Positions 4,219 through 22,002 of a stretch of DNA of 64,000 bases are shown in pieces. The DNA is from a phage, in the NCBI GenBank assembly GCA_009015555.1, contig GCA_009015555.1_3613.1, one strand, 5' to 3'. The notes under the pieces were generated by a model. It was not told the origin of the DNA. It did no database searches and saw nothing but the letters and a program-made list of their open reading frames with translations. The position numbers and the translations under genes were made by a program. The number at the start of each line of letters is the position of its first letter. Position 1 is the stretch's first letter.

Positions 4219-4529
4219 TAGTGCTCCCACTCCTCTCTGTACCATTTTGGCATAGGTGCCAAATAACCATTCACACGCTCAAGTTCGTTAAGGATCTTCT
4301 CTGCCGAACTTAATTTTGTAAAGCGGCGGAGGGTCTTCCACCCCTTGTAATGAACCGGGAGTTCAAAACACTCATAAGAGCCTTCGCAATACCTGAACTC
4401 TTGAACCCGATACTTAAAGAAATAAGCTCTCGGGTCGTACTGGATTCGATATTTGAACTGATCGCCATTATCCCGATGCGCCTGCTTTTTGTCAAGGGCC
4501 TTTTTCATTTCTTGGGAGATGAACATCAT
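4218..4529 (-). CDS. hypothetical protein (103 aa)
   Basis: ORF with coupled stop/start to downstream kinase gene. Confidence 0.5.
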   Translation of the reverse strand: MMFISQEMKKALDKKQAHRDNGDQFKYRIQYDPRAYFFKYRVQEFRYCEGSYECFELPVHYKGWKTLRRFTKLSSAEKILNELERVNGYLAPMPKWYREEWEH

Positions 4530-4546
4530 TATCCTCCTGTTTCAAA

Positions 4547-4572
4547 AAGAAAAACCGCCCCGAAGGGCGGCT
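4547..4572 (-). terminator. Rho-independent terminator hairpin (CCGCCC-TTCG-GGGCGG family) with T-run on minus strand
   Basis: Minus-strand reading ccaagccgcccttcggggcggtttttcttttt directly after stop of 4577..5659 gene. Confidence 0.6.
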
Positions 4573-4576
4573 TGGG

Positions 4577-5659
4577 TTACAGAATGTTCGCCAGCGTTTT
4601 CTTCATCGCTGCCTTCTCACGAACGTTCTGGCGGTCACGGGCACAAGACCCGCATTCCTGACAACGGTACACCTTAAATTTGGACAGGAAGGTGTGGGCA
4701 GATTTGCCTTTTTCTTCCACCAAGTCGTCGGAACCGCAGCGTACACATCGCATCACAGACTGATCCGGGTGGAACAGGGCAATGTTAGGGTGCTTACGCA
4801 TAAACGGACGAACGGTCAGGTACAGTTCTTCCAATGTCGGGATATCCCCGATGTTGTACTCTTCCATTTCGTCGAATGCCGTAGGATCACCTTCCACACA
4901 GCGACGCCACAGACCGAATCCTTCGTGAGACAACTTACGGCTGTCCAGTTCGAAGTAGTTACACGCCGCTTCCAGTGCATTGGAAGGCAGAGAGAACGAC
5001 TCCTTCAGTGCCGCCAGTGTGTCGATCGTGATATATGGGCTTGGCGGTTGCATACCGTAATATGCGAAACGCTGGTTGGCCCAACCACGGTCGAAACGGG
5101 CGTTGTGTGCAATGAAGATATCACACTCGTCAAGGACTTGCCAGAGATCCTGAATCAGTTTTTTATCCGACTGATGATCCCGTTTGAACTCTTCCGGGTA
5201 GTCGGTCAGTTTACGACTGAAGATGGACGGGTTGTGCAGCCACTTCCCGGCGAACGTCAGCATGTACGGCTCTTGAATAACCTGCTTCGGCGCGATGAAT
5301 TGCTTGAAGCGACCAAACGAATAGGCGATGCTCGGAGAGGTCTCGACATCACCAAGGAACACTTTGGCACCCGGGTTATTTTCCTTCACCTTTTCGATGA
5401 AGGTTTTCTGGATCTCTGCCAGCGTTTTACCACCATTGACTTCCTGCTGCATAAAATCAGCGTACTCATCTGGTGTTGGGATACTGTCAATCAATTGTTG
5501 GACAGTTTCCAGATTACGTGCTTCCAGTTCACGCTTCAGCATGTTGCGTACAGTTGACTCTTGAGATTCCTTGCCCAGTTGACGGGCTACCTCGCGCTGG
5601 GACAACCCACCCTTCATCAGAGCCATAACCTGTTCAACAGTAAAAGTCACATTAGCCAA
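4577..5659 (-). CDS. DEDDy-type 3'-5' exonuclease with N-terminal HTH-like region and C-terminal Cys4 ribbon
   Basis: Exo I DVET, Exo II HNARFD, Exo III YNIGD motifs in order; C-terminal CVRCG...CQECG. Confidence 0.68.
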   Translation of the reverse strand: MANVTFTVEQVMALMKGGLSQREVARQLGKESQESTVRNMLKRELEARNLETVQQLIDSIPTPDEYADFMQQEVNGGKTLAEIQKTFIEKVKENNPGAKVFLGDVETSPSIAYSFGRFKQFIAPKQVIQEPYMLTFAGKWLHNPSIFSRKLTDYPEEFKRDHQSDKKLIQDLWQVLDECDIFIAHNARFDRGWANQRFAYYGMQPPSPYITIDTLAALKESFSLPSNALEAACNYFELDSRKLSHEGFGLWRRCVEGDPTAFDEMEEYNIGDIPTLEELYLTVRPFMRKHPNIALFHPDQSVMRCVRCGSDDLVEEKGKSAHTFLSKFKVYRCQECGSCARDRQNVREKAAMKKTLANIL

Positions 5660-5673
5660 AATTAATCTCCCGA

Positions 5674-5937
5674 TTACTTACAAAATTCGATAATGTCTAC
5701 CACGGCGAAGTCACGAACATCGTCTTTATCGACATCGTGCGCCTTGATGAACCACTGAGCGCCTTTATGGTACTCACTTTCCCCGTACCAGAACATTGGG
5801 GCACCCTTGATGGTTCGATAACCGCATTCACCTCTCCAGTTACGGTAGAAGAACCGAATGTTCGGGGCATCCAACCCCGCATACAGACTTCGATCGATCT
5901 TACTCATAAAGATAGTCTTCCTCCAATTTCCGGACAA
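5674..5937 (-). CDS. hypothetical protein (87 aa)
   Basis: ORF only. Confidence 0.4.
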   Translation of the reverse strand: MSGNWRKTIFMSKIDRSLYAGLDAPNIRFFYRNWRGECGYRTIKGAPMFWYGESEYHKGAQWFIKAHDVDKDDVRDFAVVDIIEFCK

Positions 5938-6469
5938 ACTCAGTGACGTAGATGGTGATCATCACGCCCTTGTCCAGGTTCTCGTCAATAACGATACCGA
6001 AGTTCAGGTAGGCGTTACGGGCGATAGTTTCCTTTGTCCACCTCTTGAGTGACTTCTTCAAGTCGGCGACAATCTCTCCGTGGAACTTATGGTGGAGATA
6101 GTCCCTTTCAAGATAGTCTGCCAGTCTACGCAGAGTTTCACTCATTGTCAACCCTGTTTTCCCTTCCATGTGCTTAGACCACAACTTCTGGACTCCGCCC
6201 TCGAAAAGATTAAGAGTTGACCCGATGACCCCACGGCATTTTCCGTCGTAATGGTCATGGTCCAAACATGGGTCCGCCATCGGCTCCCGCAGGATAGCAC
6301 AAAGACCACCCTGCTCCAAAAGGAGTTGATCCCGGTAGGCCGCAATACTCTTCGACCCAGAGACCCACTTATCCTTGCTCAAAGGTACACGAATCGGCGT
6401 TGTAGCCTTCACTTTAGCAGTGAAGCTGGGCTTCCTCGATCGCCTTCTTCTCCCTGTCCGTATTGCCAC
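5900..6469 (-). CDS. Recombination endonuclease VII-like (HNH-type) protein; start uncertain
   Basis: CAIL...DHDH...CRGV...N motif arrangement resembles T4 endonuclease VII zinc/catalytic core from memory. Confidence 0.62.
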   Translation of the reverse strand: MAIRTGRRRRSRKPSFTAKVKATTPIRVPLSKDKWVSGSKSIAAYRDQLLLEQGGLCAILREPMADPCLDHDHYDGKCRGVIGSTLNLFEGGVQKLWSKHMEGKTGLTMSETLRRLADYLERDYLHHKFHGEIVADLKKSLKRWTKETIARNAYLNFGIVIDENLDKGVMITIYVTEFVRKLEEDYLYE

Positions 6470-7058
6470 TAATACCCTCCATCGTCAGAGCGAAAAGGAA
6501 CTCCTCCCGGGTCGGGTTTTTGAAGTCCTCAAAATATCCCAGCATGGTCCGGCGGAACAGCGTAACAGGAAAGTCAAACTTATCCGACAGTGATCCGACA
6601 TTTGTACCGACGCCTGTACTGGTCAGGGCAATATCTGAACCCAGCCCGTTCCTGATCCTCTCATCGTTTTGCGTTAAGAGGAACATAGCCATGCCCGGTA
6701 TGTAATCTGATCTTTTGCAACGAGACATCACCTCTGCCAAGTTTTCAGGATACTCCATCCTCTCAAACCCCCGCCCGGTGACGAGGACCTCATCATAGAT
6801 GAGGCCCCTTGTCTTCTCTGCCCAAGACCATTGATTAGTGCAGTAAAAGTTGATCAGGAAATCAACATTCAGCACCTTGTCACGAACAATGATCTCGTCG
6901 AAGTGTTTCCTGTCTACAGACTCGTATGTTTTATCGCGGGAAAGAGTCCCCTGCAAAGAAAACCTCCAGTCCTGCTTATCACTCCGGTCGTAACACAGGA
7001 TAATCTTACGTGTTGCGTTCTTTAAGATTGAATCCCAGTCTTTCTCCGTTTCTCTCAA
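6414..7058 (-). CDS. hypothetical protein (214 aa)
   Basis: Long ORF in operon context; no motif recognised. Confidence 0.45.
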   Translation of the reverse strand: MRETEKDWDSILKNATRKIILCYDRSDKQDWRFSLQGTLSRDKTYESVDRKHFDEIIVRDKVLNVDFLINFYCTNQWSWAEKTRGLIYDEVLVTGRGFERMEYPENLAEVMSRCKRSDYIPGMAMFLLTQNDERIRNGLGSDIALTSTGVGTNVGSLSDKFDFPVTLFRRTMLGYFEDFKNPTREEFLFALTMEGISGNTDREKKAIEEAQLHC

Positions 7059-7635
7059 GGAAACACCCTCCGATCAGGATGGCGTCGGCGAGGTCGGTAG
7101 CCCCGCCATTCTTTCCAGACTTATTATAGCCCTTCAGGAATCCCGGATGCAGGATCTCGCAAACACGCATCATTTCGTTTTTGCCCATCTTCACCTTGAC
7201 CATCTTCGTCCCGGCATCGTTCATGGTTTCCTGTTCTTCACCCGGTAACCACTTACGTGCCCAAGACTTAACCGATGTCGGCGCGATGACGTGAATTTGG
7301 TCCATAGTATACCCGTCACGAAGAAGAGTCAACTGGATGCTGTAAAATAATCCAGCCAGGTCCCTTGTGGCATCGCCAACCGACCCCAGGCTCAACGATT
7401 CAAGCACGATGTGATCCACATCGAACGAATCACACACCCCGGCAATCTGCCCGGTGATGTAGGCAATCTGTTCAGCAGTGTGCTCGAAGTACATGCACCA
7501 ACCTTTGGAGTCCTTGGCCTTCTTCTCTGACCCCGTGGTGTGGAGTACCTCCTTAAAGATCGGAATCCCGTCTTCCAACACCACATAGGCACATGAAGAC
7601 AAACTTTGGTCAATCGTCAATAAGCGCATCTTCAT
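7006..7635 (-). CDS. RuvC-like Holliday junction resolvase
   Basis: N-terminal MRLLTIDQSLSS...YVVLEDG and C-terminal DLADAILIG resemble RuvC catalytic Asp motifs. Confidence 0.58.
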   Translation of the reverse strand: MKMRLLTIDQSLSSCAYVVLEDGIPIFKEVLHTTGSEKKAKDSKGWCMYFEHTAEQIAYITGQIAGVCDSFDVDHIVLESLSLGSVGDATRDLAGLFYSIQLTLLRDGYTMDQIHVIAPTSVKSWARKWLPGEEQETMNDAGTKMVKVKMGKNEMMRVCEILHPGFLKGYNKSGKNGGATDLADAILIGGCFLERNGERLGFNLKERNT

Positions 7636-7945
7636 CCTTAGCAATAAAATGGTACTCGTTCATCAAAAACACATAGTTCTTGATGACCTTTTGAACTTCG
7701 TCGTACACCGTGAACATGGCGTACTTGTCCCCCGGGTAAGGAACACCCACCGGGTATACTTCGCACAGACTACGCACCCGTGGGTCGTACCACTGGATTC
7801 GCCAAGGTTCTTCCAGCATGGTCCACGGCTCCTCGATGAGATAGAAGGTCTTTGAAGCCCCGGGCACGAATGCCGCCCGGAGTTCATCTGCCTTAATCAT
7901 CTCCTCGACGCGAACATCCAAACCGCCAGCGTCGTTTTGACTCAT
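7610..7945 (-). CDS. hypothetical protein (111 aa)
   Basis: ORF only. Confidence 0.45.
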   Translation of the reverse strand: MSQNDAGGLDVRVEEMIKADELRAAFVPGASKTFYLIEEPWTMLEEPWRIQWYDPRVRSLCEVYPVGVPYPGDKYAMFTVYDEVQKVIKNYVFLMNEYHFIAKDEDALIDD

Positions 7946-9057
7946 TACACAACCCCCACTTTACGAAGAACATGTCCCAGAGTGGTCTTATCATCCGGGG
8001 TGCGCTTCATGTACACCGCTTGGAAGATAACAGAGGCCCACTGCCCGGCGCTGAACTTGCGATCCACGCCCATGTGATCAGTGAATGCCACCCCGTCAGG
8101 GAACCACTCCTTGTACTGATTTACGATCGCTTCCCACATGGCCTTCTCATCCTGACACGGAGAGATGACTTGGAAGGCAGAGGTCTCGCCAAACTTGATC
8201 TTGTCGAAGTTTTGGTATGGCTTCACGTTATCCGATTGATCACCGAACAACATTTGGTAACCAAAGAACTTCTGGCCCCAGCCTTTTACCTTACCCTTCT
8301 CCATCCAGATCTCCCCCATCGACTCATCAATAAGCCACGGGAGCGGATGCTTCCAGTCGCGCTCTGTTGAGTCACGCATGGTATTGAAGATAAGGCCAGG
8401 GCACTGGACTTGATCTTTGTCGAATGATGCCACGATATAGTTGAACTTGCCAGTCTTTTTGTAATGCAACCAGCCCTCATACTGTTTCATGGTCAGATAA
8501 TCATCCGCCTCGATCCCGTCAATCACGATCGCGCCGTATTTCCGTTGAACATATTCACGGGTATCCGACAGCAACAACGGGCGAACAGTGTCCTCACGGT
8601 TGCCTTTGTAGATTTCCGGCGTCGGCAGCGCCAACCGGAAGTTTCCGGTCCCACCCAAGACACCGAGTCCATTTGTCGTACCCATGTGTTCAAGGATCGC
8701 GTTGATCTTAATCTTCAGCAAGTGCAGGCAGTTTTCCACAGGTTCAGGGTACTGCTTGTCCGTAATTGTGAAATCATCACGGGTCCAAGGAGTAAACTCC
8801 CGGCCCGCTGCCGCCATCTTCGCCTCCATGTTGGTGTTCTGGTCCTTCAGCCACCCGCCGACTACTGTTTTCTGTCGGCCCCAAAACTCCGTCTTGTTCT
8901 TGAACTCCATCTGACGACCGGATTTGTTGTGGGTTGCGATAATGGTACGCTTTTCCGCGCCCGCCGCCGCAACATAACACGTCTGATCCAAATCAAGAAC
9001 AATAGTAACATCATCCGTAACGATATCCTTCAGGTTTTCTACAACGGGATAACCCAT
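7945..9057 (-). CDS. Flap endonuclease / 5'-3' exonuclease (RNase H-like, FEN family)
   Basis: GIEADDYL, FDKDQVQCPG and MLFGDQSDN motifs typical of phage 5'-3' exonucleases. Confidence 0.72.
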   Translation of the reverse strand: MGYPVVENLKDIVTDDVTIVLDLDQTCYVAAAGAEKRTIIATHNKSGRQMEFKNKTEFWGRQKTVVGGWLKDQNTNMEAKMAAAGREFTPWTRDDFTITDKQYPEPVENCLHLLKIKINAILEHMGTTNGLGVLGGTGNFRLALPTPEIYKGNREDTVRPLLLSDTREYVQRKYGAIVIDGIEADDYLTMKQYEGWLHYKKTGKFNYIVASFDKDQVQCPGLIFNTMRDSTERDWKHPLPWLIDESMGEIWMEKGKVKGWGQKFFGYQMLFGDQSDNVKPYQNFDKIKFGETSAFQVISPCQDEKAMWEAIVNQYKEWFPDGVAFTDHMGVDRKFSAGQWASVIFQAVYMKRTPDDKTTLGHVLRKVGVV

Positions 9058-9069
9058 TACTCACTCCTC

Positions 9070-9576
9070 TTAAAACGCATCACCAAAGTCCTCTTCTTCC
9101 TTGACGGGGCGCTTGAACTTAAAGTCCGGCCCCATGTACTCACTCAGGTAGTCGATATTAAGCGACCACTCCTGCTGGCTGCGCTGCCGCCATGTGGCAA
9201 ACTCACTTTTCAGATAAGCAATGGCCTGATCACGAGTGATCCCATTAACCTTCATGAATTGCTTGATCGCCCTTTCGAGTTTCCCGTTCTTCTCGGCGAG
9301 GCCCGGATGGTGGAACTCATGGCACGGCGGACACAGGCTCATGAGGCCGACCAGTTTAACCTCTCCATTTTCGAATGTCCAGCTTTCATGACACTCAACC
9401 GGATGTTTTCTTCCGTTTCCACCCTGCCCACCACAGATCTGGCAGGTGTAGTTGTGCTCGGCATAGCACTTCCGGCGCACCTTATCCCACCCGGTCTGGG
9501 TGAGGTAAGAACGGAGGTTGTTGTCCCACGCCGTTTGTGGGATCAGGCAGATTTTATGCTTAATCTTTGAAGTCAT
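9070..9576 (-). CDS. Cys/His-rich putative zinc-binding protein
   Basis: CQICGG...HPVECHE...CPPCHEFHH cluster; start taken at MTSKIKHK. Confidence 0.42.
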   Translation of the reverse strand: MTSKIKHKICLIPQTAWDNNLRSYLTQTGWDKVRRKCYAEHNYTCQICGGQGGNGRKHPVECHESWTFENGEVKLVGLMSLCPPCHEFHHPGLAEKNGKLERAIKQFMKVNGITRDQAIAYLKSEFATWRQRSQQEWSLNIDYLSEYMGPDFKFKRPVKEEEDFGDAF

Positions 9577-10111
9577 TACGCACCCTCTCATACCCGCCGC
9601 AGCGGTCAATCAGGGCGTCCGTCGCCCGGTCCCACGCCTTGCCCAAGAGGTTCATCCCCAACCAGTTGGCCTCGTCGTCAATCATCGGGTGGTCTTGGCT
9701 CAGGCCGACACCCCAGATACGATCCCGGTCAGAAGCCTCAACAAAACTCCGGCCCGCAAGTCGGTGCTGGATCGCCTCGCAGCGGAGGCCGAGGTCAAAC
9801 ACCAGACGGCAGTAACAGACATTCTCGACGATCTGCTCTCGGGACTTCTCCCACAGTTCGTTGTTGAACCCCTTTACCTTACGACCAAGCATCTTGGCTT
9901 CCTGCGGGTGGAATACCTCTGTGATCTGCCGGGCGATATTGTGATCGGCAAACAGCATGGCCTTTTCGTACATCATCATGTGCTCCCCGGTGTAGAACTT
10001 AACACCTTCCTGCTCATGTCGCGGCAGAGCGAAAGCCCTGTCGTTTCGGTAATGATTACTGAACATGTCCTTCCACGAATAGAAGAACACGTGCTTGTCG
10101 GTCACCCTCAT
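9560..10111 (-). CDS. NADAR (YbiA-like, DUF1768) domain protein
   Basis: GEHMMMYEKAMLF...IWGVGL pattern characteristic of NADAR/YbiA family from memory. Confidence 0.65.
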   Translation of the reverse strand: MRVTDKHVFFYSWKDMFSNHYRNDRAFALPRHEQEGVKFYTGEHMMMYEKAMLFADHNIARQITEVFHPQEAKMLGRKVKGFNNELWEKSREQIVENVCYCRLVFDLGLRCEAIQHRLAGRSFVEASDRDRIWGVGLSQDHPMIDDEANWLGMNLLGKAWDRATDALIDRCGGYERVRNDFKD

Positions 10112-10320
10112 ACGCAGAACTCCCCTGCCAGTCGGTTGTACTTTTCCCGGAAGAACTCAAGGCGGACCTCCAGGTCGTCGATATGGTCCGCAGCCTGAAT
10201 CATCTGGTCATACGGATCTCCGTCGCAGTTCTCCTGACTCGCAAGGTCCCGCAGGACCGTCTGAATCGGGAACATGCCGTTTTTAATTGGATGGATCACT
10301 TTCATCGGCGGCTTCCCCAC
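10108..10320 (-). CDS. hypothetical protein (70 aa)
   Basis: ORF, tandem with neighbours. Confidence 0.4.
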   Translation of the reverse strand: MGKPPMKVIHPIKNGMFPIQTVLRDLASQENCDGDPYDQMIQAADHIDDLEVRLEFFREKYNRLAGEFCV

Positions 10321-10517
10321 TCGGTGGAGATCAGGAAGGCCATAGCCACGGCAAATACCAACTCAACCATCAATGTGACATTGATCACTGTCTCCAGTTC
10401 ACGACCGTAAATACCGTTCAGGTTGAAAGTCGTTAACCCCACAATCGCCGGGGTGGCGAAAAGGATCAGTACGCCGATAACAACATAGCCGATCAAGAAT
10501 TTAACCAAACTGTTCAT
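10302..10517 (-). CDS. small membrane protein
   Basis: Hydrophobic stretch LIGYVVIGVLILFATPAIVGL; start trimmed to MNSLVKF to remove overlap. Confidence 0.4.
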   Translation of the reverse strand: MNSLVKFLIGYVVIGVLILFATPAIVGLTTFNLNGIYGRELETVINVTLMVELVFAVAMAFLISTEWGSRR

Positions 10518-10852
10518 AGTCCATCTCCAAAAATCAGGGACGCCGGGCAACTGATCCGGCAGTCTTTTGCTAACGGGAAGTCCTGCAACCACTGCGCCAG
10601 TAGGATGCTCGAACTGTTTTTGTAATCACCGGAGTTGATGTGGATGTATCCGATCTCCCAAGGGAACAGAGGGCTGTTCACGATGTGAGTCTCCACAATG
10701 TCCGTCAACTGACCATAAGTGATCAAGTTCTCTGCCTTCGATGGCAGGTACAAGCCGAAGCGAAGACCCGCCGGGCCAGTCGGTTCCATCTTACGGAACC
10801 CTACCGCCTTGGACATGTCTACCGCAAACACCTCAATAGTTACAGTTTCCAT
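10514..10852 (-). CDS. hypothetical protein (112 aa)
   Basis: ORF only. Confidence 0.45.
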   Translation of the reverse strand: METVTIEVFAVDMSKAVGFRKMEPTGPAGLRFGLYLPSKAENLITYGQLTDIVETHIVNSPLFPWEIGYIHINSGDYKNSSSILLAQWLQDFPLAKDCRISCPASLIFGDGL

Positions 10853-11229
10853 CAGTAAAGATCCTCGCTAAACAGTGTATCGTATGGCGCACCTTTTTTA
10901 CGCACCGTGTTGATCTGTCCTGCGTGAGTGGCAATGACCAGGGCATCTTGTCGGTTGTGATACTCTCCCCATTGGTCGATAAAACCCTGCTCTTCACCCG
11001 CTACAAAACGAGTAGAAATTTTATCTTCCAAGAGGTCAAGAACCTCAGCCATATCTTTGGAATAGTGACGAGACCCCGGAACTACCACAAAACCACCAGT
11101 CTTCAGTTCGAAGCGGTTGGCGGCACAAACAATCCGTCGCTGCAATTTGCGACCGTCCCACCAGTCGGCGATCTTATAACAAATTTCCGGGAGACCTTCT
11201 TTTACGGTATCTTCCATCAGTTCCTCCAA
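10852..11229 (-). CDS. hypothetical protein (125 aa)
   Basis: ORF only. Confidence 0.45.
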   Translation of the reverse strand: MEELMEDTVKEGLPEICYKIADWWDGRKLQRRIVCAANRFELKTGGFVVVPGSRHYSKDMAEVLDLLEDKISTRFVAGEEQGFIDQWGEYHNRQDALVIATHAGQINTVRKKGAPYDTLFSEDLY

Positions 11230-11429
11230 TATACGTTTTTGTCTTTTTTAATCATGCGGCTTACCTCTTTTGCCGACAAACGGTCATAACTTGCTCCGTT
11301 TTCCCGGTATGCGCCGCATGGGACCCATTCAGGGATAGAAAAGCTATAGTGCTGGTAGAAGATAGTACCTTTGGCAATTTCAATCTCCAGCCAAGGGAGA
11401 TGAACCTCGCGGATTTTGAAATATGTCAT
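11217..11429 (-). CDS. hypothetical protein (70 aa)
   Basis: ORF only. Confidence 0.38.
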   Translation of the reverse strand: MTYFKIREVHLPWLEIEIAKGTIFYQHYSFSIPEWVPCGAYRENGASYDRLSAKEVSRMIKKDKNVYWRN

Positions 11430-11599
11430 TGTCTGTTCACCAGGCTCGTCAGGATCGCAGAACCGATATATTCCAGCACATCATTGGTCGTGCTCATCTC
11501 CGGCAGTTTGATTGCCTTGCTTTCTTTATCTATTCCTGCCTGAACAGAGGGGTTTTTGAGAAGGGCCGCGATCTGCTCTTTGTTGAACTTTACTAACAT
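11426..11599 (-). CDS. hypothetical protein (~57 aa)
   Basis: ORF, start trimmed to MLVKFNKEQ. Confidence 0.33.
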   Translation of the reverse strand: MLVKFNKEQIAALLKNPSVQAGIDKESKAIKLPEMSTTNDVLEYIGSAILTSLVNRQ

Positions 11600-11609
11600 G
11601 ATGGTCTCC

Positions 11610-11819
11610 TTAGTGCTTAACGTATTTTGAAGGGCAAGAACCGCCACCTTCGTGAGTTATCGCCACGGTGGTGCGCCCGTTGCTATAAATGCACACCTTG
11701 TCACTACCGTCGGTGTAGTAATCCTCCAGGTCCAGCGTTTGAGCCGCATGTGCCGCAGAGAAATTTAACACACCTGTAATCAAAACTCCCAGCATAAACC
11801 CTAAGAATACTTCTTTCAT
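11610..11819 (-). CDS. small protein with signal-peptide-like N-terminus
   Basis: MKEVFLGFMLGVLITGVLNFSAAHA hydrophobic leader. Confidence 0.4.
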   Translation of the reverse strand: MKEVFLGFMLGVLITGVLNFSAAHAAQTLDLEDYYTDGSDKVCIYSNGRTTVAITHEGGGSCPSKYVKH

Positions 11820-12522: not shown

Positions 12523-12593
12523 GATATTTCCTCTTTCGTTGTTTGATGGGAGTAGTATACAGGAGGGGAGGCAGGAGTCAAGAGGCAGATAAA

Positions 12594-12620
12594 GAAAAAC
12601 CGCCCCGAAGGGCGGTTCTT
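12594..12620 (-). terminator. Rho-independent terminator (hairpin CCGCCCCGAAGGGCGG plus T-run)
   Basis: Hairpin immediately after stop of 12621..12902 gene; same hairpin family as at 4547 and 22007. Confidence 0.55.
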
Positions 12621-13292: not shown

Positions 13293-13542
13293 TTGTGTTA
13301 CTCCTCTTCAGTGAATGTGTGAGCATTATGCTCGTTTTAACTCAGTGTGTCAACAACTTTTTGAAACTATCGGACGAACATTCGACCTTGTTCAAAATAT
13401 CCATTCTTAATGCCCCGAGGGGCAGAAAGAGACTGTACCGCAGTAGCACCACAATTGCAAGTGGCAGTTTTGCGGTCTGCAATCTTTCGATTCTTGTCAA
13501 ATACTGCCCCGCACCCGGGGCATTTGTAAGAATACGTCGGCA

Positions 13543-13905: not shown

Positions 13906-13959
13906 CAACTTCTCCTTTTCTGTTTCAGTGGGGCCATTATACATGACCCCGTTACACTG

Positions 13960-14400
13960 TCAACGACTTTTGTAAATCTTTTCTGCTTCTTCCCGGCGAC
14001 GTTCGTCACGGGCCTTCCTTTCGATGGCACACGCTTCCCGGTAGGCTTTCCGCCGGGCACCGCAGATACCTTCGACCAGACGCAGAACGCGATCCTGCTC
14101 CCAACGGTTCATCCAGTCGAGATCCCCGGAGACAACAGGGGAGCCGTGGAAGTTGTCACGGTAAAGGTACGTCTTCACCTTCCGTTCGTGGTCGAGGATC
14201 ACATAGTCCACAAAGTGGCTACAGCGGTCTCGGTCCGCTTGCGATGGGTTGTCGTACACTTCCAGCTTTTTGGCAGCGATCAATTCGAGAATCCGATTGA
14301 CCGGGGGCCGGGTCATGCGCCTTGGTGTCACGTACTTATCCCATGCCCATACGAGGACCAGAAGAATAAACAAACTTGTGCAGACCCAGAATCCCGTCAT
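13960..14400 (-). CDS. membrane-anchored hypothetical protein
   Basis: N-terminal TM helix WVCTSLFILLVLVWAW. Confidence 0.45.
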   Translation of the reverse strand: MTGFWVCTSLFILLVLVWAWDKYVTPRRMTRPPVNRILELIAAKKLEVYDNPSQADRDRCSHFVDYVILDHERKVKTYLYRDNFHGSPVVSGDLDWMNRWEQDRVLRLVEGICGARRKAYREACAIERKARDERRREEAEKIYKSR

Positions 14401-15764
14401 TCCAGATCCTCCGCAATAGCCCGCAGCAGATCCAGCAGGGAGTCAGATGCCTCGATCACCTCTTCCAGGCTGTTAGCCTTGGTCTTGTCCATACGGATCT
14501 CGACGAACTTGTAGTTCAGACGAGGCAGGAACAGAGACTGAAGCTCTTTGGTTTCCGACTTCGTGATGTCGTTGGCCTTGATCGTGATGATCTGCCCGAT
14601 GAAGAAGTCCGCTGGCTTCTTACGAAGCGCGTCCGTCAAGCCGGAGCCGACGCCAACTTCCAGCAAGCCGTCACGAGTACGACAGATCAGTGCGCCGACG
14701 AGACTAGGATCTTTCTTGTGCGGCGTTGTAGCCACGACTTCCAGATCAACATCGAACTCGTTCTTCAACTTGACGCCTTTCTTCGTCTTGTTGTCGCCCC
14801 ACGGCATCTTCGCCTCTTTGAGGACGGTGCCCTCTTTCTTCTGGAGGCGCATTTCGATGAAGTGGTCGATCGCTTCCTTCAGGCTGTTGATCTTACGGCC
14901 CGTAACCATACGGAAGTTGTAACGGCGATCGACTTCCTGCACCAGCAGATCCGCCTCGATACGACGATCAGCGTAGTCGGTCTTCGACTTACGTGCGATG
15001 TACTCTTCCATCGTCACGATGTCCCAGATCACCAGGCGCACCAGATCACGATCGATGTCTGCCGGGTCTTGGTTCAGGTAGCCGTTGCCCTCAGCACGTT
15101 CCATCACACCATGCAGGCCATCATCGTCGATAACCAGACCTTCGCCATGTGCCACAAAGGCCCCACGGTTTTCTGCCGCCTGCATCAGGCGCTGCTCGAT
15201 CTCTTCCGGAGCACGGAAGTTCAGTTCCTTCCCGGAGCGGGAGCGGTAGATCACCTGCTCAGGCCACACCATGATGTCCGCATACAGGCCATCCATTTTC
15301 TCGTCGGAGAAAGCGCCCTTGTAGTTGAACTTACGCAGCAGATCCTCTTTGAACAGGGTGTAGCTCTGGTACGGAGGCTCCGTGATCAGGTCTTTCCACA
15401 CCTTATTGGTCAGAGTGGTCTGGATGCCGCACTCCAGATCTCGGTTGATGATCTTCAGAAGTGTGCCCGGCTCCTCGCAGGTCTGTACCAGTTGAGTCAT
15501 GTACGACTTCGCATCATCACCCGTGTAAACTCGCCCTGCGATGTTCTTCACCAACAGATCCACGCTTTCAGACAGCGGGGTAAGACCAGTCGTGAAGAAT
15601 GGAACCCGCAGTCCTCGGACGAAAAAGTTCAGTTCTTTGGAATATGCAACAGCGAAGGCTTGTTTCAGGCCATCGTTATCGGCATTCGCCCGCAGGATCG
15701 CTTCCTTCTCCTTGAGGGATCGGGTTGCAGACAACTCTGCGAGAATACTCGTTACGTTTGACAT
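14397..15764 (-). CDS. ATP-dependent DNA ligase-like nucleotidyltransferase
   Basis: KMDG (KxDG motif I) about 157 aa from N-terminus, similar spacing to T4 DNA ligase from memory; RNA ligase not excluded. Confidence 0.55.
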   Translation of the reverse strand: MSNVTSILAELSATRSLKEKEAILRANADNDGLKQAFAVAYSKELNFFVRGLRVPFFTTGLTPLSESVDLLVKNIAGRVYTGDDAKSYMTQLVQTCEEPGTLLKIINRDLECGIQTTLTNKVWKDLITEPPYQSYTLFKEDLLRKFNYKGAFSDEKMDGLYADIMVWPEQVIYRSRSGKELNFRAPEEIEQRLMQAAENRGAFVAHGEGLVIDDDGLHGVMERAEGNGYLNQDPADIDRDLVRLVIWDIVTMEEYIARKSKTDYADRRIEADLLVQEVDRRYNFRMVTGRKINSLKEAIDHFIEMRLQKKEGTVLKEAKMPWGDNKTKKGVKLKNEFDVDLEVVATTPHKKDPSLVGALICRTRDGLLEVGVGSGLTDALRKKPADFFIGQIITIKANDITKSETKELQSLFLPRLNYKFVEIRMDKTKANSLEEVIEASDSLLDLLRAIAEDLE

Positions 15765-19269: not shown

Positions 19270-20160
19270 ATGATTCGTGCATATTTAGGCGGAAGTCAGT
19301 TGGACATCGAGTTCAGCACATTTGCCGGGGGCGAGAGAAACGTCCTCATCAAGGGTTTCCAATGGCCCAGTCCGTTCAATGCGGATCTGAAAGAGAAGAT
19401 GCCAGAAGGTAAAGACCTTGTTGTCTACGCCCATGTTGACAGTTCAGATGCCATCATGGACCTGCTGCTGTTTACCGACGCATTCAACCGCATGGGTCGA
19501 GGCACAGGCAACCAGGTGAAGAAGGTCTGTTATGTGCCATACATCCCGTATGCCCGTCAAGACCGAGTGATGGTTCCTGGAGAACCGCTGTCGTCGGCAG
19601 TGTTTGGAACACTTATCAACCTGTGTGGATTTGACCGTATCATTGTTGATGACCCGCACTCAGATGTGTCTCCGTCACACATCAAGAACGTTGCCATTTT
19701 CGAACAATATGAACTGGCCTTGGATATTCTTGGCCCGGGCTTCTTCGACGATGCCGTTATCGTAGCTCCGGACGCCGGGGCAATCAAGAAGGTCACGAAG
19801 TTGGCTCAGAAGGTCAACCACCGTGAAATCGGGGTTGGGACCAAGCATCGTGACCTTATGACCAATAACATCACTGACACGACTTATGCCGGGCCGGATG
19901 TTAATGGTAAGCGTGTCATCATGGTTGATGACATTTGCGACGGAGGTCGTACATTTATCGAGCTTGGTAAGGTTCTCCGTGCCAATGGTGCGAAAGAGGT
20001 TGTTCTGTACACCACGCACGGGATTTATTCCTACGGCGCGGATGTGTTTAAGGACGTTATTGATGAGGTTTACTCCGCCTATCCGTGGATGAAGAACCTG
20101 GAAGGCCGAAACGAAAATAATATTTTCAAATCTGTTGACAAGATGGTTGAGTTCAAGTAA
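19270..20160 (+). CDS. PRPP synthetase (Prs)-family phosphoribosyl-pyrophosphokinase; candidate ADP-ribose pyrophosphate synthetase (Adps) of a NARP1-type pathway
   Basis: Type I PRTase/Prs motif VIMVDDICDGGRTF and Prs-like N-terminal half (PYARQDR); strong RBS GAGGAGAGAGAT-ATG. Confidence 0.75.
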   Translation: MIRAYLGGSQLDIEFSTFAGGERNVLIKGFQWPSPFNADLKEKMPEGKDLVVYAHVDSSDAIMDLLLFTDAFNRMGRGTGNQVKKVCYVPYIPYARQDRVMVPGEPLSSAVFGTLINLCGFDRIIVDDPHSDVSPSHIKNVAIFEQYELALDILGPGFFDDAVIVAPDAGAIKKVTKLAQKVNHREIGVGTKHRDLMTNNITDTTYAGPDVNGKRVIMVDDICDGGRTFIELGKVLRANGAKEVVLYTTHGIYSYGADVFKDVIDEVYSAYPWMKNLEGRNENNIFKSVDKMVEFK

Positions 20161-20211
20161 TATTCACAACGTTCCGGGGCACATTGCCCCAATTTAACTG
20201 AGGAGATTTAT

Positions 20212-22002
20212 ATGTTACATAACGACCTGCCTATCCTGTTTGCTGACTGGTACAAACCGAGCCATATTTCCATGTACAGCAAACAGTCTGAGATCGTACA
20301 AGACAACATGACCCCACGCTCAAGCAAACACTTTCAGCACTTTTCTGACAGTGACCAGCGCGTCATGTCTGCTGGCCTGCAAGGCTTTATTAAGTGGTTC
20401 CTGATTGAACACTTCAACCGTGAGTTCTTCGGTCGTCCGAAGGAAGAAGTTATCGGGGAGTTCAAAGAGATCTGTGACCTGGCGATCGGCCCAGACATGG
20501 TTGAAACGTGGGGCTTCGAAAAGCTGCATGACCTGGGCTATCTGCCTGTTGAAATCCGCGCCCTGCCGGAAGGTACTCTTTCTCCGGTACAAGTGCCTCT
20601 GTTCACAATTCAGAACACGCACCCGGACTTCTACTGGCTTCCTAACTACCTGGAGTCAGTGATCTCCTCTGAAAACTGGAAAACCGTAACTACGGCAACC
20701 ATTTTCTGGCAGTATCGTAAGCTGGCTGAACTGTGGGCGCAGAAAACCTGCGACAACAACCTGCACGTCCCGTTCCAGATTCATTGCTTCGCTTATCGCG
20801 GCCAGGCTGGCACTCACGATGCGGCCCAGTCTGAACTGGGACAACTGATGAACTCTCAGGGCACCGACACCATCCCGGCGATCCTGTATGCAAACCGTTA
20901 TTACGGTATGAAAGGCAAGTTCGTATCCGGCTCCATCCCGGCATCCGAGCACAGCGTTGCAACAACGAACATCGGGTTCATCATCGGACGCCTCCGTTCT
21001 GAGCATCCGGAAATGTCGCTGGATGACCTGCGTTTCCACGCAGAAGTCGAGTTCCTGCGCCGATACATCACTGAAATCTTCCCGAAAGGTTTCGTGTCTT
21101 ATGTCGGCGACAGTTATGACTGGTTCCGCCTGATCACTCAGGGTGTTCGTATCCTGAAAGACGAAATCATGGCCCGTGATGGTCGTGTGGTATTCCGCCC
21201 GGATTCCGGCGTACCGGAAGACATCATCTGCGGCACACTGGACTGGCGTAAGATTGAAGACCTCGACACGGCAGGTACTCTGGAACGCGCTGCCAATTGG
21301 GCACTGGAAAGTGCCGAAGATGAAGTTCGTGAGAACACCCCGCACGGTGAATGCGGTGATGAATCCGTTGAACGTTACTTCCTGTTCGATGGCGATCTGT
21401 ACCTGATGAAGGGTGAGATTGACTGGAACCGTCACGACAAAACGTATTACTACATCGACGGTCGCCGTGTTCTGTCTTACGAAAAGGCAGAACTCACTGA
21501 TGAGCAGAAAGGTTCTGTTGAACTGCTGTACGATGTGTTCGGTGGCGACCTGAACTCCAAAGGCTATCGTACTCTGGACACCCACGTCGGCCTGATTTAC
21601 GGTGACTCCATCACCGTTGCTCGCGCCAAAGAGATCTTCGAGCGCCTGGAAGCAAAAGGCTTTGCATCGAACAACGTTGTGTTCGGTGTCGGTTCCTTCA
21701 CCACCCAGTTCAACACTCGTGATTCTCTGGGTCAGGCAGTCAAGGCGACAGGCGCGGTTATTGACGGTCAGCAGATCATGGTCGTCAAAGAGCCTAAGAC
21801 CGACCTCGGCAAGAAGTCTGCTCAGGGCTTCCTGAAGGTTGTTCGTGGTGAAGACGGTGAACTGAAGCTGGTTGATAACCTCCAACTGGAGCAAGTCAAC
21901 GATACCGACAATGAACTGCGTGTGGTTTTCCGTGACGGCGTTCTGCTGGTTGACGAAACGCTGACTGAAATCCGTGAGCGTGTCACAGCAAACCTGAAAT
22001 AA
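20212..22002 (+). CDS. Nicotinamide phosphoribosyltransferase (NAMPT/NadV) family protein; candidate nicotinamide ADPR transferase (Namat)
   Basis: 596-aa NAMPT-family translation immediately downstream of the Prs-like gene; RBS GAGGAG; no NMN adenylyltransferase seen in window. Confidence 0.8.
   Translation: MLHNDLPILFADWYKPSHISMYSKQSEIVQDNMTPRSSKHFQHFSDSDQRVMSAGLQGFIKWFLIEHFNREFFGRPKEEVIGEFKEICDLAIGPDMVETWGFEKLHDLGYLPVEIRALPEGTLSPVQVPLFTIQNTHPDFYWLPNYLESVISSENWKTVTTATIFWQYRKLAELWAQKTCDNNLHVPFQIHCFAYRGQAGTHDAAQSELGQLMNSQGTDTIPAILYANRYYGMKGKFVSGSIPASEHSVATTNIGFIIGRLRSEHPEMSLDDLRFHAEVEFLRRYITEIFPKGFVSYVGDSYDWFRLITQGVRILKDEIMARDGRVVFRPDSGVPEDIICGTLDWRKIEDLDTAGTLERAANWALESAEDEVRENTPHGECGDESVERYFLFDGDLYLMKGEIDWNRHDKTYYYIDGRRVLSYEKAELTDEQKGSVELLYDVFGGDLNSKGYRTLDTHVGLIYGDSITVARAKEIFERLEAKGFASNNVVFGVGSFTTQFNTRDSLGQAVKATGAVIDGQQIMVVKEPKTDLGKKSAQGFLKVVRGEDGELKLVDNLQLEQVNDTDNELRVVFRDGVLLVDETLTEIRERVTANLK

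Follow-up and report, generated by a model that had tools for sequence, protein, structure and literature searches.

Enzymes of the NADAR family reverse the ADP-ribosylation of guanine at N2 and act as the antitoxins of DarT1 (Schuller et al. 2023). All four NADAR types associated with E. coli, including gp30.3 of phage T4, hydrolysed guanine-linked ADP-ribose (G-ADPr) in vitro and did not hydrolyse its thymine-linked counterpart (T-ADPr), and the protection that NADARs confer in vivo depends on their subtype (Cihlova et al. 2024). T4 gp30.3 (AdfN-T4) has since been described as an anti-DarTG1 factor (Johannesman et al., Nat Commun 2025, PMC11825919). Two unrelated phage NADARs, AdfN-Bas32 and AdfN-Bas60, neutralised DarT1 even in the absence of phage and rescued RB69, T5 and Bas25 from DarTG1, and all three phage NADARs used in plaque assays were ineffective against the thymine-modifying DarTG2 (PMC11825919). 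That adfN is conditionally essential on hosts carrying DarTG1 was found independently by HIDEN-SEQ. Here we describe a NADAR gene at 9560..10111 (minus strand) of a 64,000-nucleotide stretch of phage DNA (contig GCA_009015555.1_3613.1 of NCBI GenBank assembly GCA_009015555.1), the whole of which is referred to below as the window. The gene encodes an orphan, stand-alone NADAR-family protein of 183 amino acids, predicted to be an AdfN-like DNA glycohydrolase acting on guanine-ADP-ribose. This orphan ADP-ribosylglycohydrolase is probably the counterpart of AdfN in the genus Certrevirus, removing ADP-ribose from guanine to counter DarTG1.

The gene is a 183-codon open reading frame (ORF) with an ATG start, as seen in both the ORF list and the sequence. 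An earlier note on this DNA had pointed to a YbiA/NADAR-like pattern in the translation, and both motifs that it quoted are present, GEHMMMYEKAMLF at residues 42-54 and IWGVGL at residues 132-137, on the minus strand, which the note had not stated. A profile search of the kind that note proposed matched Pfam PF08719 (NADAR / DUF1768 / COG3236) with an E value of 1.4e-32 and a score of 113.6 bits (gathering threshold 35.1 bits), over profile positions 2-160 of 163. The protein also matched PHROG 1017 (E 8e-51, 173 bits) and, amongst sequences in the PDB, the NADAR structure 8BAU (E 1.3e-10) and YbiA (E 1.4e-4). The NADAR match is far beyond chance, which is excluded by a wide margin. NADAR is the single domain of the protein and is fused to neither RibA nor RibD. 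The ratio of non-synonymous to synonymous substitution (dN/dS, Nei-Gojobori) was 0.078 against the orthologue of Cronobacter phage CR3 (dS 1.13), 0.013 against that of Pectobacterium phage POP15 and 0.11 in the divergent half of the gene. The gene is therefore real and under strong purifying selection, and the protein is almost certainly an intact NADAR enzyme. An antisense ORF at 9518..10198 (plus strand) was considered as a gene and rejected, since it lacks conservation in CR3 and selection is seen in the minus-strand frame. Homologues were found in 718 phage records, 28 of which carry one of at least 60% identity; 30 records match the certrevirus-type region around the gene. Labels carried by phage homologues include 'GTP cyclohydrolase II', 'DNA methyltransferase', 'YbiA-like N-glycosidase' and 'hypothetical'. 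PADLOC returned a single, uncharacterised candidate model (PDC-M42C) for the protein, which is non-informative.

An AlphaFold2 model built from a 43-sequence alignment had a pLDDT of 97.1 and a pTM of 0.91, and its Foldseek matches were NADAR-fold proteins only (8BAU with a TM score of 0.74, YbiA with 0.70). In the complex of the Phytophthora nicotianae NADAR (PnNADAR) with ADP-ribose, the ligand is contacted by E43, K50, K75, G78, R79, V81, Y84, D86, W89, R93, E125, D130 and W133 (Schuller et al. 2023). These contacts were transferred to the window protein through a HMMER alignment and verified by script, giving as equivalents E43, K50, K73, G76, R77, V79, F82, N84, W87, R91, E125, D130 and W133. 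All 13 are kept, 11 of them identical and two conservatively replaced (Y84 by F82, D86 by N84), so that the catalytic and ADP-ribose-binding residues which the earlier note had left to an alignment are all in place. The active-site codons lie within 9713..9985 on the minus strand. Those of E43 (9983-9985), K50 (9962-9964), E125 (9737-9739) and W133 (9713-9715) were read off the sequence, and those of K73 (9893-9895), R77 (9881-9883) and D130 (9722-9724) were computed from the residue numbers. The E-x6-K spacing formed by E43 and K50 is also that of T4 (E36/K43), E. coli C7 (E88/K95) and PnNADAR (E43/K50). K73 is equivalent to K115 of the E. coli C7 NADAR, a residue that is not needed for catalysis but is required in vivo against DarT1 (Schuller et al. 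2023). It is kept in AdfN-Bas60 and is Ala in YbiA. Because C7 K115 is essential for rescue from DarT1, and the position is Ala in the non-rescuing YbiA, K73 is a correlate that would favour competence of the window NADAR against DarT1 in vivo.

Residue conservation also bears on whether the protein works as an enzyme at all. An extremely improbable and poorly constrained alternative is that the NADAR pocket only binds ADP-ribose, or an ADP-ribosylated defence protein, and that the protein inhibits without catalysis. The analogy comes from a phage NADAR-like protein, U56, which is cited as an antagonist of Retron-Eco1 (reportedly in work by Carabias, 2024). However, E43, G76, R77, W87, E125 and D130 are invariant across 43 homologues, K50 and K73 are nearly so, and the strong purifying selection adds to the case against a pocket in which E43, K50 and E125 would have no catalytic use. 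Moreover AdfN-Bas60, the closest tested relative, needs no such target.

AdfN-Bas60 was placed by its discoverers among bacterial NADARs that are neither YbiA nor DarG1 (PMC11825919). In both sequence and structure the window NADAR is nearer to the stand-alone class, represented by PnNADAR, than to YbiA, which agrees with that placement. By tblastn via a phi92-like homologue, we located AdfN-Bas60 as bas60_0111 of Escherichia phage PaulScherrer (QXV83846.1). The two proteins, each of 183 amino acids, can be aligned over their whole length (36% identity, E 4e-27), and they have in common the N-terminus MR[VI]TDK.VFF and the active-site residues, K73 included. Both fall in PHROG 1017, where Bas60 scores 170 bits to the 173 of the window protein, and both are encoded by orphan genes of large Enterobacteria myoviruses. 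The BASEL work grouped Bas60 with the Vequintavirinae relatives; GenBank records place the CR3-like phage in the Vequintavirinae and Bas60 in the Stephanstirmvirinae. The two proteins differ at 64% of positions. In Bas60, a 7-residue insertion precedes the AK.LGR motif and position 133 is Tyr instead of Trp; the C-terminus of the window protein forms a helix specific to its clade (~residues 160-183). The genomic settings differ as well, the Bas60 gene following an FtsH-like protease gene and a 467-amino-acid ORF and the window gene lying between small ORFs and an HNH endonuclease and exonuclease.

What the analysis shows in favour of an AdfN-like function is a predicted NADAR fold with its active site kept, a gene under purifying selection in an orphan setting, and a tested AdfN as homologue; enzymatic activity and the target in vivo are what we infer from these. 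Because every NADAR family tested hydrolyses G-ADPr in vitro, the window NADAR would very likely do so too. During infection, a DarT1-type host toxin would use NAD+ to place ADP-ribose on the N2 of guanine in replicating phage DNA and so block replication. The phage NADAR would then bind the ADP-ribose, with K50, R77, W87, R91 and W133 at the diphosphate and F82 stacking on the adenine, and would cleave the N-glycosidic bond between ribose and guanine, with E43 and E125 flanking the distal ribose. Free ADP-ribose would be released and unmodified, replicable DNA restored. As the target would be the lesion and not the toxin, no toxin partner would be needed and any guanine-specific DNA ADP-ribosyltransferase (ART) could be countered. 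Thymine ADP-ribosylation by DarT2 would not be expected to be reversed. The earlier note had suggested antagonism of DarT-type toxins in general; for guanine and DarT1 this finds backing in the tested homologue AdfN-Bas60, but it was too broad in taking in thymine and DarT2, where NADARs fail.

Several observations weigh against this assignment. The tested homologue, AdfN-Bas60, shares only 36% of its residues with the window protein, and its gene is not in a syntenic position. The window NADAR also passes the NCBIfam model for a riboflavin intermediates N-glycosidase. YbiA and T4 gp30.3 hydrolyse G-ADPr in vitro and yet do not rescue uninfected cells from DarT1 (PMC11825919; Cihlova et al. 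2024), so in vitro activity does not assure protection in vivo. Lastly, a literature search for DarTG in the hosts Cronobacter, Pectobacterium and Enterobacter returned nothing relevant. That the presence of DarT1 in certrevirus hosts is not established also favours a possible but unlikely alternative, namely that the same chemistry is directed at other marks. Here the enzyme would remove ADP-ribose from cytidine (C-ADPr) or guanine, on RNA or DNA, as deposited by pierisin/ScARP-like or YarT-like ARTs of defence systems or competitors, possibly undiscovered ones, and not by DarT1 specifically. Stand-alone and YbiA-type NADARs do also remove cytidine-ADPr from DNA and RNA, all families remove G-ADPr from RNA, and NADAR antitoxins are found paired with YarT, an ART that is not a DarT. 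However, the sole phage phenotype so far observed in vivo for the clade of the window NADAR is anti-DarTG1, and no defence system known in the literature tabulated uses C-ADPr or RNA G-ADPr. CmdT modifies adenine at N6 in mRNA, and this is reversed by CmdA and not by a NADAR.

The riboflavin model leads to a different alternative, in which the protein is a YbiA-like N-glycosidase of metabolites that would act on riboflavin intermediates or other small N-ribosides as damage control in infection, with no part in DNA repair or counter-defence. The protein does score 108.8 bits against TIGR02464 ('riboflavin biosynthesis intermediates N-glycosidase', NCBIfam), above the cut-off of 73.7 bits. Furthermore, it has at position 125 the Glu that is a signature of the YbiA class, where DarG1 has Asp and T4-type proteins have His, and 'YbiA-like N-glycosidase' and 'GTP cyclohydrolase II' are frequent annotations of its homologues. 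Yet the validated anti-DarT1 protein AdfN-Bas60 scores alike (109.4 bits), with true YbiA at 169.5 bits, and the label therefore has no discriminating power and was rejected as a functional call. K73 is present in the window NADAR but missing from YbiA, the 19 neighbouring ORFs scanned include no gene of the riboflavin pathway, and YbiA itself hydrolyses G-ADPr in vitro. Taken together, these points make a purely metabolic role very unlikely.

The window also contains the nicotinamide adenine dinucleotide (NAD+) reconstitution pair that the earlier note had mentioned alongside the NADAR. By Pfam, a Prs-like gene of 296 amino acids with Pribosyltran_N, Pribosyl_synth and Pribosyltran domains (19270-20160, plus strand) is adjacent to a NAPRTase-like gene of 596 amino acids (20212-22002, plus strand), the two together spanning 19270-22002. 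An identical Prs-like and NAPRTase domain pair defines NARP1 (Adps and Namat) in phage Bas63, and the window pair, compared by domains, matches genes 79-80 of Bas63 in architecture. Certrevirus papers annotate the pair as prs and nicotinamide phosphoribosyltransferase (PMC7344957 and one further paper). NAPRTase-like homologues occur in 2039 phage records and Prs-like homologues in 1372. The pair lies ~9 kb from the NADAR gene, on the opposite strand and in a separate transcription unit. Elsewhere, a phage-like contig of Logan SRR13619851 was seen to carry a distant NADAR homologue (36% identity) downstream of a NAPRTase gene, at a distance of ~400 bp (4390-6504), with isochorismatase/nicotinamidase-like, RNA ligase, CCA-adding-enzyme-like and NMNAT-like genes nearby; on that contig a NADAR is physically linked to putative NAD salvage genes.

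It could be proposed that the NADAR is a helper of NARP1, freeing ADP-ribose from conjugates, or from immune signals derived from ADP-ribose, for the rebuilding of NAD+ by Adps and Namat. The product of a NADAR is indeed free ADP-ribose, from which, with nicotinamide, NARP1 makes NAD+. The linkage on the Logan contig would fit, as would the presence of both this NADAR and NAPRTase-like genes in Kayvirus, Listeria P100-like phages, phi92-like phages and certreviruses. Nevertheless, the lineages that show this co-occurrence are large myoviruses, few in number and not independent of one another. In the window, 9 kb separates the NADAR gene from the pair, and the two loci lie on opposite strands and belong to different units. 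No NADAR is known to act on free ADP-ribose-based signals, and NARP1 works without a NADAR in the Bas63 deletion and complementation experiments. We consider such a helper role highly improbable.

Returning to the assignment as an AdfN, the gene neighbourhood is that of an orphan. No ART or toxin domain was found in the 19 neighbouring ORFs scanned, and the window NADAR is therefore an orphan; these ORFs likewise held no riboflavin-pathway gene. Its neighbours are small ORFs of unknown PHROG function, a PinA-like ORF, an HNH endonuclease and an exonuclease. The gene order on the minus strand is DNA ligase, MazG, ~12 small ORFs, NADAR, HNH endonuclease, exodeoxyribonuclease, endonuclease VII and DNA polymerase, and the neighbourhood matches that of CR3. 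Immediately upstream is a 70-amino-acid ORF (10108..10320, minus strand) whose TGA stop overlaps the NADAR ATG by 4 nt (ATGA), and this overlap suggests translational coupling of the two genes. The product of the 70-amino-acid ORF weakly resembles the C-terminal part of PinA, the T4 protein that inhibits the host's Lon protease. Pfam PF10465 is matched at 27.9 bits, barely above its cut-off of 27, and PHROG 2167 ('inhibitor of host Lon protease') with E 1.6e-7; PHROG 15899 is matched as well. Downstream is a free-standing HNH endonuclease gene (9070..9576, minus strand; PHROG 5200, E 1.9e-75) whose CR3 orthologue is annotated as an HNH endonuclease. Its ATG start at 9576 overlaps the 3' end of the NADAR gene by 17 nt. 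With overlaps on both sides, the NADAR gene therefore sits in a tightly packed minus-strand run. It was also observed that, in T4 and in this unrelated myovirus alike, the NADAR gene has the orientation of an ATP-dependent DNA ligase gene and lies downstream of it, by ~4.3 kb here (ligase at 14397-15764, minus strand) and by ~1 kb in T4. As the two NADARs belong to different families, this common arrangement may be a coincidence.

The nearest strong promoter candidate upstream of the run that ends with NADAR, HNH endonuclease and exonuclease is a sigma70-like consensus match at 12554..12581 (minus strand, TTGACT-16-TATACT, 10/12). Just upstream of it, a strong intrinsic-terminator-like hairpin of 11 pairs with a T-run (12595..12620, minus strand) probably delimits the transcription unit. 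Further consensus matches lie on the minus strand at 13325-13353 (sigma70-like, 11/12) and at 13936..13963, the latter a perfect sigma70 candidate (TTGACA-16-TATAAT, 12/12) similar to the early promoter that certreviruses conserve and that was described for CB7 and CR3 (PMC7344957). The small-ORF cluster is probably divided into transcription units at these candidates and the hairpin. A search of the window for the published certrevirus early-promoter consensus, TGTTGAC-N19-TATAAT, gave no exact match; a relaxed form matched once on the minus strand. Early or middle expression dependent on host RNA polymerase has been proposed for certreviruses (PMC7344957), and the promoter matches would fit such expression of the NADAR gene, early timing being what we infer. 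The earlier note had placed the gene in an 'early block', a description that the three sigma70-like matches upstream support in part, whilst the exact early-promoter consensus was not found.

On nucleotide identity the window is a CR3-like certrevirus (genus Certrevirus, Vequintavirinae). The region has an overall identity of ~91% to Cronobacter phage CR3; 87% of it aligns with PBES 02, at 94% identity, and other matches were to Certrevirus members infecting Cronobacter, Enterobacter, Pantoea, Klebsiella and Pectobacterium. The orthologue in CR3 (CR3_232) is annotated at 423 bp. A truncation of this orthologue was considered and rejected, since its full 185-amino-acid ORF is intact and only the annotated start is late. 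The NADAR gene goes unmentioned in two genus-level certrevirus papers (one of them PMC7344957). Sliding identity showed that the flanks at 7000-9390 and 10150-10350, and again the sequence from 12000, are 98-100% identical to CR3. A patch at ~9391-10050 is only 64-90% identical to CR3 but 88-98% identical to POP15, whose identity in the flanks is 70-86%, and the window NADAR protein is 98.9% identical to that of POP15. This POP15-like patch between CR3-like flanks indicates that a POP15-type NADAR allele has been recombined into an otherwise ~99% CR3-type backbone. The putative recombinant patch (9391..10050) takes in the 5' end of the HNH gene and approximately the C-terminal two thirds of the NADAR gene. 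The breakpoint of the swap falls inside the adjacent homing-endonuclease (HNH) gene, a position compatible with co-conversion driven by HNH. Another divergent patch was observed at ~10550-11800. The allele swap can be joined to the NAD+ pair in a broader scheme, which we regard as decidedly doubtful: the window NADAR would not be dedicated to DarT1 but would be a broad eraser of base-linked ADP-ribose (on G and C, in DNA and RNA) deposited by ART defence toxins of Enterobacterales yet to be discovered, and would feed ADP-ribose to NARP1 in a coupled salvage loop, and the POP15-type allele would have been selected for a different spectrum of substrates or toxins.

If the window gene is an AdfN, then AdfN counter-defence would reach beyond the E. 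coli phages T4, Bas32 and Bas60 to the genus Certrevirus, whose members infect Cronobacter, Enterobacter and Pectobacterium and are under development for food safety and crop biocontrol. A function would likewise be given to a gene annotated as 'hypothetical', 'GTP cyclohydrolase II' or 'YbiA-like N-glycosidase' in hundreds of phage genomes. Together with the NARP1-like pair, resistance of these phages both to DarTG1 and to NAD+-depleting systems would be predicted. No new question is opened, since the principle, the enzyme family and a homologue in related large Enterobacteria myoviruses have already been characterised.

Lastly, we compared the window NADAR with the other described NADAR systems. 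PnNADAR (PDB 8BAU) is a stand-alone NADAR that hydrolyses guanine-ADPr (Schuller et al., Mol Cell 2023), and its numbering coincides with that of the window protein at E43, K50 and E125. However, it is a eukaryotic protein and not a viral counter-defence gene. AdfN-T4, which is conditionally essential on DarTG1 hosts, shares the superfamily, but it belongs to PHROG 652 and not PHROG 1017, its type has His where the window protein has E125, and it is fully active only in the context of a T-even phage. On the basis of E125 and PHROG 1017, the window protein was judged not to belong to the T4-type 'phage NADAR' family, and BLASTP against gp30.3 yielded only spurious short matches. DarG1 (E. coli C7; G. 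lovleyi 8BAT) has the same fold, predicted reaction, E/K catalytic residues and C7 K115-equivalent Lys. In contrast to the window protein, DarG1 carries an N-terminal extension and has Asp (D171) at the position of E125; darG1 adjoins darT1, but the window gene stands beside no toxin gene. The window NADAR was consequently rejected as a DarG1 antitoxin, for it has neither the N-terminal extension nor the catalytic Asp, and darT1 is not adjacent. E. coli YbiA (PDB 2B3W) is only 26% identical to the window NADAR and, as well as having Ala in place of K73, gives no protection against DarT1 in vivo (Cihlova et al. 2024). Its gene is in a LexA-controlled operon beside dinG, rhlE and ybiB, unlike the window gene in its cluster of small phage ORFs. 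The anti-DarTG1 strategy itself was already published in 2025 for related phage proteins, and the window gene is a new example of it and not a new idea.

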